From: an uncultured Actinomycetota bacterium
Lineage (GTDB): Bacteria > Actinomycetota > Actinomycetes > Propionibacteriales > Nocardioidaceae
Length of the DNA stretch: 64,000 nt
Assembly (NCBI GenBank): GCA_963755835.1
Contig: CAVWLC010000005.1
Location: forward strand, 1,524,910 to 1,588,909
Direction: 5' to 3'
This document shows, one piece after another, positions 29,675-43,527 of the stretch (within the stretch, counting starts at the first letter, position 1; the number at the start of each line of letters is the position of its first letter). The notes beneath the pieces were generated by a model, which did no database searches, was not told the origin of the DNA, and saw only the letters and a program-made list of their open reading frames with translations. Both the position numbers and the translations under genes were made by a program.

Positions 29675-30766
<1,092 letters not shown>

Positions 30767-30767
30767 C

Positions 30768-34097
<3,330 letters not shown>

Positions 34098-34098
<1 letters not shown>

Positions 34099-35339
34099 CA
34101 GTCGGTCTCTCCGCTCGGAGGGGCTTCGGTGTCGGTGGCTGAGGTGCGAGGCCGGCGACGGCCGAGCCTCGAAGCCTGCTGCGGGGCTTCGAGGCTCGTC
34201 GCTGGCGCTCCTCGCACCTCAGCCACCGGAGCCATCAGCTCCACGAACCGGTCGAACAGGTACGCCGCGTCGTGCGGCCCGGCGGCCGCCTCGGGGTGGT
34301 ACTGGACCGAGAAGGCCTTGAGGCTTCCGTCCCCGTCCCGCAGCTCCAGCCCCTCGACCACGTCGTCGTTGAGGCAGACGTGGCTGACCGTGGCCACGCC
34401 GTACGGCGTCGGAGTGGGGGCGTCGAGCGGTGCGTCCACCGCGAACCCGTGGTTGTGGGCGGTCACCTCGACCTTGCCGGTGGTGCGGTCCATGACCGGC
34501 TGGTTGATGCCGCGGTGGCCGTACTTCAGCTTGTAGGTGTCGAAGCCCAGGGCCCGGCCGAACAGCTGGTTGCCGAAGCAGATGCCGAAGTAGGGGATCC
34601 CGTCGGCCAGCGCGCCCTGGAGCAGCTCCACCTGCGAGGTCGTGGCAGCCGGGTCGCCGGGGCCGTTGCTGTAGAACAGCCCGTCCGCGCCGACCGCCCG
34701 CACGTCGTCGAGGCCGGCGGTGGCGGGCAGCACGTGCACCTCGATGCCGCGCTCGGCCATCCGGTGTGGGGTCATCGACTTGATGCCCAGGTCGAGCGCG
34801 GCCACGGTGAGCCGCTTCACGCCGATGGCCGGGACGACGTACGTCTCTCCGGTCGACACCTCGCCGGCCAGCTCTGCCCCGGCCATGCCGTCCTGCTGGC
34901 GCACCCGCCCGAGCAGCACGAACGGATCGCCCTCGGTCGAGGAGATACCGACGCGCATGGCGCCGCGCTCGCGCAGGTGCCGGGTGAGCGCCCGGGTGTC
35001 GATGCCCGAGATGCCGACCACGCCCTGCTCGCGCAGCTCGTCGTCCAGGCTGCGGCGGGAGCGCCAGCTGGACGGGACCCGGGCGGGGTCACGGACGACG
35101 TACCCGGCCACCCAGATCTTCCGCGACTCGGGGTCCTCGTCGTTCATGCCGGTGTTGCCGATGTGCGGCGCGGTCATGACCACGACCTGGCGGTGGTAGG
35201 ACGGGTCGGTCAGCGTCTCCTGGTAGCCGGTCATGCCGGTGTTGAAGACCGCCTCGCCGAACGTCTCACCCTCGGCGCCGTACGCCTCGCCGTGGAAGGT
35301 GCGGCCGTCCTCGAGGACCAGGATCGCGGGGGCAGGCAT
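34098..35339 (-). CDS. carA: carbamoyl-phosphate synthase small subunit with a repeat-derived C-terminal extension
   Basis: [16 protein letters not shown]...GICFGNQL...HNHGF. The stop overlaps the carB ATG (ATGA). The last ~45 codons read through the family-A palindrome. Confidence 0.93.
34134..34227. repeat. family-A two-tier palindromic repeat, compact copy, inside the carA coding sequence
   Basis: 18/18 complementary outer arms, 13/13 complementary inner arms, 12-nt bulges on both sides and an 8-nt apex. Confidence 0.9.
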
Positions 35340-35352
35340 CGGCGGGCCCTAC

Positions 35353-35392
35353 TCCTTCTCCGCCTCACGGGACGGTGGTTAAAGGATGTCGG
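35353..35392 (-). promoter_or_regulatory. PyrR-binding RNA element in the carA leader
   Basis: Minus-strand RNA reads CGACAUCCUUUAACCACCGUCCCGUGAGGCGGAGAAGGAG. It has the UCCUUUAA / GUCC-GAGAGGC-like loop / GAGAAGG layout of PyrR binding loops and is near-identical to the copy at 42033-42073. Confidence 0.75.
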
Positions 35393-35464
35393 TCACCCGG
35401 GACCTTACCAGCGGCCCGCCGGCCTCCGAGACCTCGTCTCGCGGCGCGTTCCTGCGGTGGCTCC

Positions 35465-36220
35465 TCAGAGCACGGCGTCCAGGAACGCCTTGGTCTCGGG
35501 GTTCCGCGGCGTCCCGATGATCTCTGCGGGTGGCCCCTCCTCGAGGATCCGGCCCTCGTGGAAGAACGCCATCCGGTCGGCCACCTCGCGCGCGAAGCCC
35601 ATCTCGTGGGTGACCACCAGCATCGTCATGTGCAGCTCGGTGGAGAGCGTCTTCATGACCGAGAGCACCTCGCCGGTGAGCTCGGGGTCGAGCGCGGAGG
35701 TCGGCTCGTCGAAGAGCATCACGTCCGGCTCCATCGCCAGCGCCCGGGCGATCGCCACGCGCTGCTGCTGGCCGCCGGAGAGCCGGATGGGGTGCTCGCC
35801 GGCCTTGTCGGCGAGACCGACCCGGTCGAGGAGCTCCTTGGCCCGCTTGGTGACCTCGGCGGTGCTCTGCCCCGCGCAACGGGGCGCGCACAGGACGTTG
35901 TCGAGCACCGTCATGTTGGGGAAGAGGTTGAACTGCTGGAAGACCATCCCGACGTGCAGCCGGAGCTGGCGGATCTGCTCGCGCTTGCGCCGGGTTCGGT
36001 AACCGCCCTGCAGCCGGATCCCGGAGACCTCGATCGAGCCTTCGGTCGGGTCCTCGATGAAGTTCACACAGCGCAGCACCGTCGACTTGCCGGAGCCGGA
36101 CCGCCCGAAGATCACCACCACCTCCCCGCGCTGGATCTCCATGTCGACGCCGCGCACCACCTCCAGGTGGCCGAAGCTCTTGTGCAGGCCGTCGATGCGG
36201 ACCACCACGTCGGCGCTCAC
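35465..36220 (-). CDS. amino-acid ABC transporter ATP-binding protein
   Basis: [38 protein letters not shown] overlaps the permease stop (GTGA). Confidence 0.93.
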
Positions 36221-37134
36221 CCGGGCCCGCCCCCACCGTGCGGCTGGCCCTGCTGGCCCGCGGCCTGCATGGCCCGGGCCACGTGCGTGCGGTCGTAGCC
36301 GCGCCCGATCCGCTTCTCGAGCCGGGACTGGAAGAACGTGAACAGCACCGTGAGCCCCCAGTAGACGAGGGCCACGGCGACGTAGGCCTCCAGGTTCTTG
36401 AAGTCGTGCTTCCCGACCAGCTGGGCGCGGCGGAAGATCTCCGCGCTGGCGGCGGTGACGCCCAGGAACGAGACCAGCGCGGTGTCCTTCATCATCGCGA
36501 TGAACTCGTTGCCGGTCGGCGGGATGATCACCCGGAAGGCCTGCGGCAGCACCACCTTGCGCATCTTCTGGCCGTAGGTCATGCCGAGCGCGTCCGCCGC
36601 CTCGCCCTGGCCGCCGGCCACGGACTGGATGCCGGCCCGGAAGATCTCGGTCATGTAGGCGCCGTAGTTCAGCCCGAGCGCGATCGTCCCGGCGGTGGCC
36701 GCGTCGAGGACCAGCGCCTGGTCGAAGCCGTCGGGAAGCCATTGGTACTCGAGCCCGAGGTTGCGGCCCACCGGCGGCAGGGCCAGGTAGAGGAGATACA
36801 TCTGGACGATCAGCGGGGTGCCGCGGAAGAACGAGACGTAGAACCCGGCCACGCCGTACGCCACCGGGTTGCGCGAGAGGCGGGCGAGGGCACCGAGCAG
36901 GGCGAGCACGATGGCCAGCACGATGCCGCTGACGGCGATCACCATCGTGTAGCGCAGCCCGCCCAGGATGTAGCGGAAGTTGTCGCGGATCCACTGGGTG
37001 TCGAACTGGGCCGCGTTGCCGAGGAACGCGAGCACGGCGAACAGCACCACCCAGACGGCCGCGACCTTCAGCCGGAACGGCACGCGGGCGGAGGCGAGCT
37101 GGACCCGCTCCCAGGTGTCACTCACGGATGTCAC
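36217..37134 (-). CDS. amino-acid ABC transporter permease (HisM/GlnP-like)
   Basis: The EAA-type loop [25 protein letters not shown] and multiple TM helices. Confidence 0.9.
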
Positions 37135-37159
37135 TCATGGGGCCTCCATGCCGGCCGCC

Positions 37160-38074
37160 TCACTGCTGGGTGGTCAGGTCCGTGCCGTACCACTTCTCCG
37201 ACAGCGAGGTCAGCGTGCCGTCCGCGTGCATCTCACCGACGATCTTGTCGACCGCCTCGAACAGGCTCTCCGACGACGGGTCGGAGCTCTTGTCGAAACC
37301 GACGGAGAGCGGCTCGTAGAAGACCGGGTCGCCCACGATCTTCACCGGGTTGCCCGCGTCGATGTAGCCCTGCGCGGTCGTCACCGAGGTGATCACGGCG
37401 TCCACGCGGCCGTTGACCAGGTCCTGGAGCGCGGTGGTGTCGGTGTCGTAGCCGGAGACCTCGGCGTCGTCGATGACGAAGTCGAAGGTGTAGCCGTCGA
37501 TGGCCAGCTCCTTGTTGAGGTACTGCTCGTAGGTGCAGCCGCTGCAGACCCCGATCTTCTTGCCGTCCAGGTCGGTGCTGAGGTCGGTGACGTCGTCGTT
37601 GTCCGCCGACACCACGACGACCGCCGGCGTGTAGTTGTAGGGCTGGGTGAAGTCGAGGACCTTCTGCCGGTCGTTGGTCGGCGTCATGGAGCCGACGGTC
37701 GTGTCCCAGCGGCCGTTCCAGCTCCCGGCGGTGATCACGTCCCACGCGGGGGTCTCCCACGCCACGTCGACGCCCAGCCGCTTGGCGATCTCGGTCGCGA
37801 CGTCGATGTCGAAGCCTTCGTACTTCCCGGTCTGCTCGTTCAGCGAGGACTGGGGCGGGTACGCCGGGTCCGTCGACACCGTGAGCTTGCCCGAGTCACA
37901 GACCTTCTTGAGGAGGTCGGTGGTGTCCCCCGCGCACACGCCCTCCCCCGTCGCCGCGGCGGGCTGGTCGCTACTGCCGCTGTCCTTTGCCGAGCTGTCG
38001 CTGTCGCCCCCACAGGCCGAGAGCACCGCGACGAGCAGGGCCACGAGGGCCACGAGGAGAGAACGGATGCGCAT
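37160..38074 (-). CDS. amino-acid ABC transporter substrate-binding lipoprotein
   Basis: Signal peptide with lipobox VLSAC, then a family-3 SBP pattern (GFDIDVATEIAKRLG...). ATG at 38074. Confidence 0.88.
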   Translation of the reverse strand: MRIRSLLVALVALLVAVLSACGGDSDSSAKDSGSSDQPAAATGEGVCAGDTTDLLKKVCDSGKLTVSTDPAYPPQSSLNEQTGKYEGFDIDVATEIAKRLGVDVAWETPAWDVITAGSWNGRWDTTVGSMTPTNDRQKVLDFTQPYNYTPAVVVVSADNDDVTDLSTDLDGKKIGVCSGCTYEQYLNKELAIDGYTFDFVIDDAEVSGYDTDTTALQDLVNGRVDAVITSVTTAQGYIDAGNPVKIVGDPVFYEPLSVGFDKSSDPSSESLFEAVDKIVGEMHADGTLTSLSEKWYGTDLTTQQ

Positions 38075-38124
38075 GCGCGGACTATGCACCCCCCGGGAAG
38101 CGACGTCCAGTACTGAGCCGCGAG

Positions 38125-39147
38125 TCAGTAGGAGGCCGACCCGGACCCGGGCAGCCGCTCGTCGATAGCACGCGCAACCTCCCAGGAGCCGTTGGTGGTG
38201 TTGCCGAGCACCGACCAGGTGATCGCTCCGGCCAGGTGGTGGGACACGAACGACGCACCCGTGTCCGACCCGGTCAGGTAGACGGTCTCGCCCTCGAGCC
38301 AGAAGCCGAGCCCGTACGCGCGCCCCCGGTCGTCGCTGCGGACCCGCCGCATCTCGGCCCAGGTCCCCGGCGTCACGACGAGACCGTCGTCCAGGGCCTG
38401 CCACAGCGCACTCAGGTCGGCCGCGGTGGTGAAGATGCCACCGTCGCCGCCGCCCACGACCGGCAGGTGGAGCACGTTCGTGCGCAGCTCGTCGGCGTGC
38501 CCCTCGGGGTGGAGGTAGCCCAGGGCGGCGTCGCCGGGCAGCGCGTCCGAGCGCAGGTACGCCGTCCGGGTGAGGCCGGCCCGGTCGATGACGTGACGCC
38601 GGACGAGGTCGTGGAACCGAACGCCCGCGGCCCGCTCGGCGAGCAGCGCGAGCACGACGTACCCGCCGTTGCAGTAGGCGAAGTCGGAGCCGGGAGCGAA
38701 CGCCTGCGCGAAGCCGTCGAGCACCGCGAGGTAGGACTCGGCGGTGTCGAGCTGGTGCACCGGCACCGCGACCAGGTGCTGGTCCAGGTCATGCCCCTCG
38801 CTGCTCTCGTCGAGGTAGTCGCCGATCCCGGACCGGTGGGCCAGCAGCTGTTCGACCGTCACCGCGTCGTCGACGAGCGGCAGGTCGTCGCCGAGCAGCT
38901 CGCGGGCGGGCGTCTCGAGAGCCAGCACCCCGTCCTCGACGAGGCGCATGACGGTCAGCGCCGTGAACCCCTTGGCACCGCTGGCAACCGCCACCCGCGT
39001 GTCCTCGGTGAAGGGCACGCGGTGGGCGCGGTCGGCGAGCCCGTAGGTCCGCAGAAGTGGCTCCTCGCCGGGCCGGTCGACCCGCACGACCCCGGAGAAG
39101 TCACTGGCCTCGGCCACCTCGCCCAAGGCGGCCGCGAGATCGGTCAC
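38125..39147 (-). CDS. serine hydrolase (beta-lactamase/DD-peptidase family)
   Basis: S-x-x-K motif ASGAKGFTA and LLAHRSGIGDY. GTG overlaps the pyrC stop (GTGA). Confidence 0.85.
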   Translation of the reverse strand: MTDLAAALGEVAEASDFSGVVRVDRPGEEPLLRTYGLADRAHRVPFTEDTRVAVASGAKGFTALTVMRLVEDGVLALETPARELLGDDLPLVDDAVTVEQLLAHRSGIGDYLDESSEGHDLDQHLVAVPVHQLDTAESYLAVLDGFAQAFAPGSDFAYCNGGYVVLALLAERAAGVRFHDLVRRHVIDRAGLTRTAYLRSDALPGDAALGYLHPEGHADELRTNVLHLPVVGGGDGGIFTTAADLSALWQALDDGLVVTPGTWAEMRRVRSDDRGRAYGLGFWLEGETVYLTGSDTGASFVSHHLAGAITWSVLGNTTNGSWEVARAIDERLPGSGSASY

Positions 39148-40427
39148 TGCAGCTTGGCGTCCAGGACCGTGGCCCGGCCCCGCAGGAACGTCGCCACCAC
39201 CTGGCCCGGCAGCTCCATCCCGGCGTACGGCGTGTTGCGGCTCAGCGACGCCGACTCGCTGGCGTCGACCACCCGGCGTACGGACGGGTCGTAGAGCACC
39301 AGGTTGGCGGGCTGGCCCGCCTCCACGGGGTGACCGTGGTCGTGGACCCGGCCGATCCGGGCCGGCGCGTAGGACATCCGGTCAGCCACGCCCGCCCAGT
39401 CGAGCAGGCCGGAGTCGACCATCGTCTCCTGCACGATCGACAGCGCGGTCTCCAGGCCGAGCATCCCGAACGCCGCGGCGGCCCACTCGCAGTCCTTGTC
39501 CTCGTGCGGGTGCGGCGCGTGGTCCGTGGCCACCACGTCGATCGTCCCGTCCGCCAGCCCCTCGCGGAGCGCCTCGACGTCCGCGGTGGAGCGCAGCGGC
39601 GGGTTCACCTTGTAGAGAGGGTCATAGGTCGCGGCCAGGTCGTCGGTCAGGAGCAGGTGGTGCGGGCAGACCTCGGCGGTGACGTTCCACCCCTTCGACT
39701 TCGCCCAGCGGATGATCTCCACCGAGCCGGCCGTCGACACGTGACAGACGTGCAGCCGGGAGCCGACGTGCGCGGCCAGCAGGCAGTCGCGGGCGATGAT
39801 CGCCTCCTCGGCCACCGCCGGCCAGCCGGCCAGGCCGAGCCGGCCGGAGAGCTCGCCCTCGTTCATCTGGGCGTCCTCGGTCAGCCGCGGCTCCTGTGAG
39901 TGCTGGGCGATCACCCCGTCGAAGGCCTTGACGTACTCCAGCGCCCGGCGCATCAGCACCGCGTCGCTCACGCACCTGCCGTCGTCGGAGAAGACCCGCA
40001 CCTTGGCCGCGGAGTCGGCCATCGCCCCGAGCTCGGCCAGCCGCTCACCGTTGAGGCCCACCGTCACGGCACCGACCGGGCGGACATCGCAGTGGCCGGC
40101 CTCGCGGCCCAGCCGCCAGACCTGCTCCACGACGCCCGCGGTGTCGGCCACGGGCTCGGTGTTGGCCATCGCGTGCACCGCGGTGAAGCCGCCGCGCGCC
40201 GCGGCCGACGTACCGCTCTCGACGGTCTCGGCGTCCTCGCGGCCCGGCTCGCGCAGGTGCGTGTGCAGGTCGACCAGGCCGGGCAGCGCCACCAGCCCCT
40301 CGGCGTCGACGACCTCCGCGCCCTTCGCGCTCAGCCCGGCTCCCACCTCGGCGACGACGCCGTCCTCGAGCAGCAGGTCCGTGGGCGCGCCGCCCAGAAC
40401 GGCTGCGCCCCTGATCAGGTAGCTCAC
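39144..40427 (-). CDS. pyrC: dihydroorotase
   Basis: [33 protein letters not shown]. Confidence 0.95.
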
Positions 40428-41437
40428 TCTTCTTCCTCCCGCTCGGGTGGTCCCTGAGGAACCCGCCCTTCTGGCGGAGCCTCGTCGGCCGGCGTCTCGA
40501 AGGGCTCGGACCCGCCCAGCAGCAGGTAGAGCACGGCCATGCGCACGGCGACGCCGTTCGTGACCTGCTCGACGATCACCGAGCGGGCCGAGTCGGCCAC
40601 ATCAGCGGTGATCTCCATGCCGCGGACCATCGGCCCCGGGTGCATGACGATCGTGTGGTCCTGGAGGGTCGCCATCCGGCGGGCGTCGAGGCCGTAGCGG
40701 CGGCTGTACTCGCGCGGGGTCGGGAAGAAGCCGCCGTTCATCCGCTCTCGCTGGACCCGCAGCATCATCACGGCGTCCGCCTTGGGGAGCACCCCGTCGA
40801 GGTCGTACGACGTCTCGACCGGCCACGTCTCGACCCCGACCGGCAGCAGTGTCGGCGGCGCCACGAGCGTCACCTCGACGCCCAGCGTGCGCAGCAGCAG
40901 CGCGTTGGACCGAGCCACCCGGCTGTGCAGGACGTCGCCGACGATCGCGACCCGGCGCCCCTCGAGACCACCCGGCCTCGACTCTCCGAGGTGGCGCCAC
41001 ATCGTGAACGCGTCCAGCAGCGCCTGGGTGGGGTGCTCGTGGGTGCCGTCGCCGGCGTTGACCACGCTGGAGCGGACCCAGCCGGAGTGGGCGAGCCGGT
41101 GCGGGGCACCGCTGGCGCCGTGCCGGACCACCACCGCGTCGGCACCCATCGCCTCCAGGGTGAGCGCGGTGTCCTTGAGGCTCTCGCCCTTGCTGAGGCT
41201 CGAGCCCTTGGCGGCGAAGTTGATGACGTCCGCGCTGAGCCGCTTGGCGGCGGCCTCGAACGAGATCCGGGTGCGGGTGGAGTCCTCGAAGAACAGGTTG
41301 ACCACGGTGCGGCCGCGCAGCGCGGGCAGCTTCTTGATCGGCCGGTCGGCCAGCGACCGCATCTCCTCGGCGGTGTTGAGGACGAGCTCCGCGTCGTCCC
41401 GGGTCAGGTCGGCGGCGCTGAGCAGGTGTCGCTTCAT
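40424..41437 (-). CDS. pyrB: aspartate carbamoyltransferase catalytic subunit
   Basis: [25 protein letters not shown]. Confidence 0.95.
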
Positions 41438-42018
41438 TGCTGGGTCTCCTCGATCGTGACCTCGTCGGCGCCGTCGATCTCCGCGACCCGCAGCCGGACC
41501 CGCTCGACCAGGGAGGTCGGAAGGTTCTTGCCGACGAAGTCGGCCCGGATCGGCAGCTCGCGGTGGCCGCGGTCGACGAGCACGGCCAGTCGTACGGCGC
41601 TGGGCCGGCCGACGTCGTTGAGCGCGTCCAGCGCCGACCTGATCGTCCGGCCGCTGAACAGCACGTCGTCGACGAGGACGACGACCTTGCCGTCGACCCC
41701 GCCGGGTGGGATCTCGGTCGGCAGCAGCGCCCGGGCCGGCTTGAGCCGGAGGTCGTCGCGGTACATCGTCACGTCGAGCGAGCCGACCGGGACGTCGTAC
41801 GCCTCGACGGCGGCGATCCGCTCCGCGATCCGGTGCGCCAGGGGTACGCCGCGGCTGGGGATGCCGAGCAGGACGAGATCCATGGCGCCGCGGTTGCGTT
41901 CGAGGATCTCGTGCGAGATGCGGGTCAGGGCCCGCGCGATGTCACGGTCGTCGAGGACCGTCCGTCCCGTCCGGAGTGGGGACTCTCCCTGCTGTGCAGG
42001 CTGGGGCTGAGCACACAT
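41434..42018 (-). CDS. pyrR: bifunctional pyrimidine operon regulator / uracil phosphoribosyltransferase PyrR
   Basis: [13 protein letters not shown]...[18 protein letters not shown]...[20 protein letters not shown]. Confidence 0.95.
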
Positions 42019-42032
42019 GTGTGGCCCGTGAC

Positions 42033-42073
42033 CTCCTTCTCCGCCTCACGGGACGGCTCGTTAAAGGATGTCG
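42033..42073 (-). promoter_or_regulatory. PyrR-binding RNA element in the pyrR leader
   Basis: Minus-strand RNA reads CGACAUCCUUUAACGAGCCGUCCCGUGAGGCGGAGAAGGAG, 14 nt upstream of the pyrR ATG. A TATGGT hexamer lies 11 nt upstream of the element. Confidence 0.78.
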
Positions 42074-42150
42074 ATCGGGCGTCACCATACCCCGGCGCAT
42101 CGGTGTCGCAGCATCCCGTGCGCGGGGTGTCCTGGGTCGTGGACGACGGA

Positions 42151-42314
42151 TCAGCCGACGAGGCGGTCGCTGATCGCGCTGGTGGCCAGCACGAGCAGGA
42201 CGATCGCGGCGGCAGCCAGCAGGGCCGCCACGGCGCTGACCTGCGGACGTCCGGCGGCGTCGAGCGAGCTGCGCTTGTGGGCGGGCTTGTGCGCAGTGGG
42301 TACGTCGTGGGCCA
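42151..42314 (-). CDS. small hypothetical membrane protein (54 aa)
   Basis: ATG 7 nt after GGGGAGG, high GC3, and one C-terminal TM helix (VSAVAALLAAAAIVLLVLA). Confidence 0.5.
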
Positions 42315-42435
42315 TGAGGGCCTCCCCAGGGGTCAGGGGGGATCGTTTGGGACCTGACACCAGTGCACCCCCAGAGCCCCGACCGCACCATGGCCCGGAA
42401 TGGCCATCCGGCATGATCAGCTCGGGCTGGCCCGT

Positions 42436-43527
42436 TCAGGTGGCCAGGTGCGGCGCGGCCCGGCCCGCGACCAGGGGCAGGTCGAGGTAGGTCTTGATGC
42501 CCGGCTCGGCGGCCACGACGTACGGGATCGCGTTCACGCAGTGGTTGGCGGTCGAGACGATGCCGGGGTTGCGGACCAGCCCGGCCTCGACGGTCTCGGG
42601 CTGCAGCCCCTTGAAGGTGAGCTTCACGCTCGGGTCGCCGGTGATCTCGACCTCGAACCGCTCGCCCTCCGGGCCGAAGCTCCAGTCCGGGTCGAGGTGC
42701 TCCTCGCCCATCAGCCAGTTCACGGTGGCGGTGACGACCGGTACGCCGTCCACGAGCGCCCGCCAGTGGAACCGTCGGGCCGCGACCAGCCCCGGCTCGA
42801 TCACGCCGATCGGGGAGTCGATCGGAGCGGTGGCCACGGCCACCTCCTGGACCGTCTCGATGTGCGGGTCGGCGGCGAAGCCCAGCTCGGCCACGACCAT
42901 CCGCACCGAGGACCGGAAGCCGCCGCCCAGCAGCGCGGCCATCGGGCTGGCCAGTGCCTCCTCCGGCGTACCGCCGAAAGCCATCACGTGCCGGATCACG
43001 TCCGGCGCGCCGTAGGTCCGGATGTCGGAGAACTCCTCGGCGCGAACGTGCGTGACCCGGGCGCTCACGCCCGACACCATGAGCGGGAACCGCTCGGTGA
43101 TCCCGCCGGGGTGGATGCCGGTGCCGTGCAGCGTGGACCGGCCCTCGACGCAGGCCGCCTCGATCGCCGTGACCTTGGCCGGGTCGGGGTAGATCCAGCC
43201 GACCGGGGTGACCACGTTCTTGCCGGAGCGAAGCAGCGCCACGACCTCGTCGTCGTTCGGCACCAGCGGGCTGTACACCACGCAGTCCGCGTCGAGGGCC
43301 AGGATGTCCTCCTGGCTGCTCGTCGCCACGACCCCGACCGGCCCGGTGCCGAGGAGCTCGCCGACGTCCTTCCCGTCCTTGCCCGCCGAGTGCACCCAGC
43401 ACCCGGCCAGCTCGAGGTCGGGATGGCTCAGCACTCCCTCGATCGCCGCCTTGCCGACCCCGCCGGTGGCCCACTGCACGACTTTGATCGGGGTCTTCGT
43501 TGTCTGCCTGGGCGCCTGCAGCGGCAT
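42436..43527 (-). CDS. NAD(P)-binding dihydrodipicolinate-reductase-like / amine dehydrogenase family protein
   Basis: Rossmann N-terminus IKVVQWATGGVGKAAI. ATG at 43527, 10 nt after GGAGGG. A GTG at 43554 is an alternative start. Confidence 0.75.
   Translation of the reverse strand: MPLQAPRQTTKTPIKVVQWATGGVGKAAIEGVLSHPDLELAGCWVHSAGKDGKDVGELLGTGPVGVVATSSQEDILALDADCVVYSPLVPNDDEVVALLRSGKNVVTPVGWIYPDPAKVTAIEAACVEGRSTLHGTGIHPGGITERFPLMVSGVSARVTHVRAEEFSDIRTYGAPDVIRHVMAFGGTPEEALASPMAALLGGGFRSSVRMVVAELGFAADPHIETVQEVAVATAPIDSPIGVIEPGLVAARRFHWRALVDGVPVVTATVNWLMGEEHLDPDWSFGPEGERFEVEITGDPSVKLTFKGLQPETVEAGLVRNPGIVSTANHCVNAIPYVVAAEPGIKTYLDLPLVAGRAAPHLAT

Follow-up and report, generated by a model that had tools for sequence, protein, structure and literature searches.

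Does carA, in the pyrimidine gene cluster of this window (by which we mean the whole stretch of 64,000 nucleotides analysed here), head a second transcription unit with a PyrR-controlled leader of its own? In Mycobacterium smegmatis, the PyrR-binding loop overlaps the ribosome-binding site without a terminator, and the genes form a pyrR-pyrB-pyrC-...-carA-carB-pyrF cluster. There, PyrR reportedly represses translation through the operator in the pyrR leader (Fields & Switzer 2007, J Bacteriol 189:6236). The first-pass annotation of the window proposed that this leader, together with a -10-like hexamer, had been duplicated in front of carA. The features on which our answer rests are collected in the table below.

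Features of the pyrR-carA region, with positions in the window
Feature	Position	Strand	Basis and remarks
carA	34098..35339	-	TIGR01368, 424 bits; first gene of unit 2
X30 RNA contig	35256-35395		Illumina adapter at both ends; adapter at 35394/35395
carA Shine-Dalgarno GAAGGAG	35352..35358	-	Lower-stem 3' arm of hairpin 2, last G outside; sequence reading
PyrR-binding hairpin 2 (predicted)	35353..35386	-	Before carA; RF00515 28.5 bits; found by covariance model R1
X27 RNA contig	end at 35379		Depth 66.7 versus about 3 for the upstream ABC-transporter genes
X21 RNA contig	end at 35381		
X25 RNA contig	end at 35384		
X24 RNA contig	end at 35385		
X38 RNA contig	end at 35394		
carA unit transcription start (inferred), G35394	35394..35395	-	35395 ambiguous; A may be adapter
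carA extended -10, TGgTAAGGT	35402..35410 (hexamer 35407-35402)	-	Sequence; conservation
Cargo between pyrC and second leader	35465..39147	-	Hydrolase, amino-acid ABC binding protein, permease, ATPase; NCBIfam
Serine hydrolase, beta-lactamase fold	39147-38125	-	NCBIfam; GTG overlaps pyrC stop
pyrC	40427-39144	-	After pyrB
pyrB	41437-40424	-	After pyrR
pyrR	41434..42018	-	NF003547, 287 bits versus cut-off 230
PyrR-binding hairpin 1 (predicted)	42034..42068	-	Before pyrR; RF00515 25.9 bits; R1 69.6 bits
pyrR -10 hexamer TATGGT	42084..42089	-	Sequence; TAnnnT at 37/39 pyrR sites

Read as mRNA (minus strand), the leader of carA is GACAUCCUUUAAC-CA-CCGUCCCGUGAGGCGGAGAAGGAG (35390-35352) and that of pyrR is GACAUCCUUUAAC-GAG-CCGUCCCGUGAGGCGGAGAAGGAG (42072-42030). 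Blocks of 13 and 24 nt are the same in both, and the linker measures 3 nt versus 4 nt. Both the repeat and its linkers were correctly described in the first-pass annotation, which placed the two copies to within 1-2 nt. An exact 24-mer repeat in 64 kb has a chance expectation of about 1e-5. Across the 5.35-Mb genome, a motif pattern comprising the loop and the 3' arm matched two places only, the carA and pyrR leaders, and a reversed control pattern gave 0 matches. A single pyrR copy was found by a genome-wide profile search.

The Rfam alignment of hairpin 2, the one before carA, pairs U35386-U35381 with G35358-A35353 in the lower stem (UCCUUU/GAAGGA), followed by an A-rich 5' bulge (35380-35376), a 5-bp upper stem (C35375-C35371 with G35364-G35360, CCGUC/GGCGG) and the hexaloop CCGUGA (35370-35365). 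The upper stem had previously been read as 3 bp closing a 10-nt loop, a minor difference. The lower stem has GAAGGA (35358-35353) as its 3' arm and no terminator follows, which is the mycobacterial-type layout, and the pyrR Shine-Dalgarno likewise lies within the 3' arm of hairpin 1. The claim that the Shine-Dalgarno is held within the stem therefore stands for both leaders, and it extends to all 75 of the 75 sites compared. Among the 25 sites on which our covariance model was built, 96% of the paired cells are occupied by pairs, and the pair that closes the upper stem shows C-G/U-A covariation. The free-energy test gave a stability equal to that of shuffled sequence (z = 0.05), as expected of a protein-stabilised fold, and adds no support.

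The room between hairpin and start codon is only 12-14 nt in both leaders. The block GGAGAAGGAG, annotated as 13-14 nt before both ATGs, is indeed 14 nt from that of pyrR (42018) and is 12 nt from that of carA (35339). A 12-nt gap between Shine-Dalgarno and ATG is rather long. A carA start codon further upstream is ruled out by an in-frame TAG at 35351-35349. Between the Shine-Dalgarno and the carA ATG, position 35344 carries G>T in all four DNA runs and several RNA runs, so the environmental strain differs from the window by one leader base.

Searches with RF00515 at E-value thresholds aligned both leaders, from 35334 to 35389 and from 42013 to 42071, and at E<=10 these were the only matches in the genome. 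Neither reached the gathering threshold of the family (54 bits); the resemblance to PyrR binding loops that the first-pass annotation pointed out is borne out by sub-threshold alignments of both sites. The scores are low because the terminator part of the model is absent from both leaders: of its 115 positions, the Firmicute antiterminator/terminator half is deleted in the alignments (32 and 34 positions), and positions 1-45, which represent the binding loop, have posterior probabilities close to 1 in both alignments. Only two of 14 control genomes passed the RF00515 cut-off, with Corynebacterium glutamicum listed among the weaker matches only; low scores are therefore expected of actinobacterial sites. 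Both sites have the binding-loop consensus (a CCUUU/AAGG lower stem, an A-rich 5' bulge, and the upper stem with loop GUCCnGnGAGGC), and both lie in the 5' leaders of pyrimidine genes in a genome that encodes PyrR. We found no terminator-like site of the kind used in Bacillus-type attenuation in 35200-35700 or 41900-42400. Other sub-threshold Rfam matches in 34800-42600 (AS1890, COG3860, miRNA and snoRNA families) fall in coding sequence with E-values of 0.3-5.7 and were set aside as chance. The sole Rfam match above its gathering score in the window is a full-length FMN riboswitch (RF00050, 14615-14776, minus strand, 86.8 bits).

Upstream of each leader lies a hexamer of the TAnnnT type, TAAGGT before carA and TATGGT before pyrR, both at the positions annotated previously, 11 nt before the GACAUCC block and 15 nt before the hairpin. 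Among relatives, TAnnnT is present at 36 of 36 carA sites, 34 of them with the extended TGn, and at 31 of the 36 it stands 14-17 nt before the hairpin; at pyrR sites the extended TGn is found in 26 of 39. Sequence upstream of the carA hexamer is not conserved among relatives. Actinobacterial and mycobacterial start sites have (T)ANNNT at -13 to -6 and do not need a -35 element, and processed RNA ends in mycobacteria favour C and lack ANNNT (10.1101/423392). A sigma-70 consensus scan, which needs a -35 hexamer and is ill-suited to Actinobacteria, returned no promoters and no terminators.

We compared these positions with RNA contigs assembled from soil and plant metatranscriptomes of near-identical strains (0-4 mismatches per contig), in which a primary start and a processed end look alike. 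Six contigs, from six runs of at least four studies, have an end between 35379 and 35395, and not one extends past 35395, in line with the start upstream of carA that the proposed duplication implied. In 11 runs, no RNA coverage of 35396-35550 was found at >=95-97% identity. DNA contigs of the same study pass through 35395 unbroken, indicating that the RNA contig ends are not assembly artefacts. Relative to G35394, TAAGGT occupies -13 to -8, so that a SigA-type (T)ANNNT, a purine at +1 and an RNA 5' end coincide there. Contigs with a pyrR-type leader end at the equivalent of 42076 with the adapter directly joined (X42, X30); as at carA, the end is a G that lies 8 nt past the hexamer. One low-depth contig from a relative (X24 record 5, depth 2.2) continues through its own -10, which suggests that some read-through or DNA carry-over occurs. 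RNA contigs of other community members (X30, X38, X41-X43) share only the conserved core of the leader, beyond which they diverge, and have 5' ends at the equivalent of 42072-42076, so a start 8-9 nt before the hairpin appears to be conserved across organisms.

The second leader lies in a 125-nt spacer (35464-35340) that separates carA from four cargo genes located after pyrC, and the genes that follow it are carA-carB-pyrD-pyrF. The cargo of the window was found elsewhere only in its closest relative (G035, ATPase 80% identical). In other genomes (loci L033-L075), the cargo at the pyrC-carA junction is unrelated and species-variable and ranges from 0 to about 17 kb. It includes opposite-strand genes confirmed with Pfam, namely an M4 peptidase, a class IV aminotransferase and a LuxR-type regulator; the GC3-based gene caller, which under-calls (1/4 in the window), was used only to flag opposite-strand cargo, of which these three genes were confirmed. 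Just past the ATPase stop, a small hairpin without a U-tract (GAGAC-GAG-GUCUC, 35428-35440, minus strand) might act as a weak or factor-dependent terminator for the cargo genes. Each of carB and pyrD is apparently split by a 1-nt frameshift (32649-32660 and 30010-30016): the ORF at 31024-34098 covers CarB residues 1-483 only, with the remainder in the ORF at 30768-32633. Near-identical Illumina metagenome DNA contigs have one base fewer at 32649/32651 and at 30012. Intact copies of both genes therefore exist, the shifts are probably assembly indels, and a reading of the unit as decaying is unwarranted.

In the same loci, PyrB and PyrC fall into two classes of identity to the window (about 60-65% and about 77-94%), each containing one-site and two-site genomes; in these genomes CarA is about 72-94% identical and the N-terminus of CarB about 76-97%. 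The two classes could represent two deep lineages or a replacement of the pyrR-pyrB-pyrC block by transfer.

To assess the distribution of the sites, we used the covariance model R1, which has 42 positions and was built on 25 sites. Nearly all Actinomycetes have exactly one R1 site per genome, located before pyrR wherever the neighbouring genes were read. Outside the family of the window, 236 of 237 Actinomycetes genomes have at most one site. In a genome of another family (G279), a second match was left uncounted, as it is a 22-nt partial hit at a contig edge (27.8 bits). Two matches were found in 23 of 201 genomes of the window's family, and in about 25 of the 32 genomes of its genus with a sufficiently contiguous assembly. 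In two-site relatives, the second site is directly before carA in every case (35/35; 19 + 12 + 3 + 1), and the first directly before pyrR in 34 of the 35, the carA site alone being visible in the remaining one. The two sites lie 2.86 to 20.4 kb apart. Three pattern matches (L004, L011 and L031) were dismissed as chance, since they lie inside coding sequence and lack the UCCUUUAA arm.

The strongest pattern, absent from the first-pass annotation, is the association with the split of the operon. In all seven genus members in which pyrC abuts carA, the second site is absent, even at E<=1, and across the 43 genomes examined the second module is present precisely where the operon is split. In four genomes, pyrC is followed by a bare spacer of about 120 nt that contains the second site together with its -10.

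We then considered the age of the second leader. When positions -8 to +16 around the core are compared, likeness between the second sites of different genomes is 80%, against only 74% between a second site and the first site of its own genome; the between-genome likeness is the higher one in 29 of 31 genomes. Second sites also have marks of their own: cgAACA, a GAUCC linker and GGAGGUACGGCGUGCC. This likeness and these marks suggest that the second site is an orthologous element that arose once or rarely in Nocardioidaceae. The blocks common to the two copies of the window are the invariant core of every aligned family site, so their near-identity here is no sign of recent copying. The consensus upstream parts, ctgcTAGGGTcgc...gatcgaca and ctggTAGGGTcgg...gctcgaaca, resemble each other, which fits an original copy of about 75 nt including the -10 element. 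The earlier proposal that the promoter-proximal part was duplicated along with the leader thus agrees with the -10 conserved at all carA sites; what does not hold is its placement as an event in this genome. Judged by these alignments, the second leader is an old module confined to Nocardioidaceae and orthologous across Nocardioides and sister genera.

We estimate at about 80% the probability that the carA spacer is a complete module, an old leader copy with its own promoter and a start near G35394, through which PyrR with UMP/UTP represses carA translation. The extended -10 would drive transcription from about G35394, giving a 55-nt carA leader of which nt 9-42 would fold as the PyrR-binding hairpin. 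At high UMP/UTP, the single PyrR of the cell would bind and stabilise this hairpin, which would then block the ribosome-binding site and repress carA translation, and coupling or polarity would repress carB-pyrD-pyrF along with it. The same PyrR would act on the pyrR-pyrB-pyrC leader; since one PyrR serves both leaders, both halves of the split operon would come under one signal. The hairpin has no terminator behind it, which points to translational control rather than attenuation. We observed the match in sequence and structure, the genomic placement, the conservation, the RNA 5' ends and the single pyrR gene, and we infer PyrR binding, its nucleotide dependence and translational repression at the carA leader. 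The carA-carB-pyrD-pyrF genes are most likely a separately transcribed, PyrR-controlled unit. As for its origin, the module most likely arose long ago, within Nocardioidaceae, as a copy of the promoter and leader of pyrR, and it made the carA block transcriptionally autonomous.

If carA were instead expressed by read-through from the pyrR promoter, the second hairpin would be an intercistronic translational operator and 35394 a processing site. The window would allow this, as all genes from pyrR to carA share one strand, the start of the hydrolase overlaps the pyrC stop and no canonical terminator precedes the carA leader, but several relatives have opposite-strand genes between pyrC and carA. 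The four relatives with the site in a short spacer after pyrC would suit read-through too, as would the relative whose RNA contig continues through its -10 and the parallel of the internal binding loops of the Bacillus pyr operon. On the other hand, the extended -10 is conserved at a fixed distance in 34-36 of 36 sites, the upstream stretch lacks RNA coverage in all 11 runs, and the RNA 5' end is a G, 8 nt past the hexamer, whereas processed ends in mycobacteria favour C without ANNNT. We regard read-through as improbable.

Two further readings concern the role of the copy. The PyrR-bound hairpin might act mainly on mRNA stability or through Rho-dependent polarity, given that it begins 9 nt from the 5' end, a position at which bound protein could shield the transcript from 5'-end-dependent decay, and that blocked translation often brings Rho termination; occlusion of the ribosome-binding site is nevertheless the simplest reading of a Shine-Dalgarno that lies inside the stem at every site, and a primary effect on stability or polarity seems to us slightly less probable still than read-through. 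The least credible reading takes the second copy for a recent and perhaps neutral product of duplication or gene conversion, with no regulatory role. The 13-nt and 24-nt blocks identical in both leaders would invite it, but these belong to the core shared by all family sites, and a second site, invariably placed before carA, has been kept in at least 35 other genomes of several genera. We rejected a recent duplication or gene conversion on the between-genome comparison, in which second sites are nearer to each other than to their own first site, and the flanks are not those of independent insertions. A PyrR-controlled module with its own promoter remains the reading we prefer.

This kind of control has known counterparts. 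The pyrR leader of M. smegmatis, another high-GC actinobacterial host, is the direct counterpart of the first site here. Mycobacteria have at most one PyrR site, heading the operon where this was read, whereas here a second copy with a promoter heads carA.

The pyr operon of Bacillus subtilis is described as having binding loops BL1-BL3, some of them between genes (RF00515; Turnbough & Switzer 2008, as cited in PMC6524683). It resembles the present case in having several sites for one pathway with the same consensus, UCCUUU..AA..GUCCnGnGAGGC..AAGGA, and differs in that these operate as an antiterminator/terminator switch in one transcript, whereas the present leaders lack a terminator and sequester the Shine-Dalgarno, and the second of them has its own promoter. 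Multi-operon PyrR regulons are known from Lactococcus (pyrRPB-carA, carB, pyrKDbF) and Streptococcus pneumoniae (PMC6212727, PMC6296669). In lactic acid bacteria and streptococci, as here, separate units of the pathway, including carA/carB, each have a PyrR site, but these are Firmicute attenuators in units dispersed over the genome, and not a split actinobacterial operon. In the literature available for searching, we found no actinobacterium described as having a second PyrR leader, with a promoter, in front of carA. The mechanism itself is not new; the carA leader adds a new case to a known kind of control.

The duplicated promoter-plus-operator module may also have been the enabling step of operon fission, a suggestion to which we give a little less than even odds. 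The junction would have been freed from co-transcription and then have become a landing site for cargo, with both halves under one PyrR signal and the bare spacers as an intermediate stage. If true, this would be a documented stepwise case of splitting a regulated operon without loss of regulation.

For genome annotation, the finding means that RF00515 misses both leaders, which a small covariance model detects cleanly. The PyrR control known in Actinobacteria involves one operator, which heads the pyr operon. In Nocardioides and its relatives, the whole module (-10, start site, hairpin and Shine-Dalgarno) appears to have been copied internally, so that the pathway would run as two units, most likely both controlled by PyrR. 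This is relevant to regulon reconstruction in soil Actinobacteria and, for operon evolution, offers a case in which fission through the duplication of a regulatory region can be tested.
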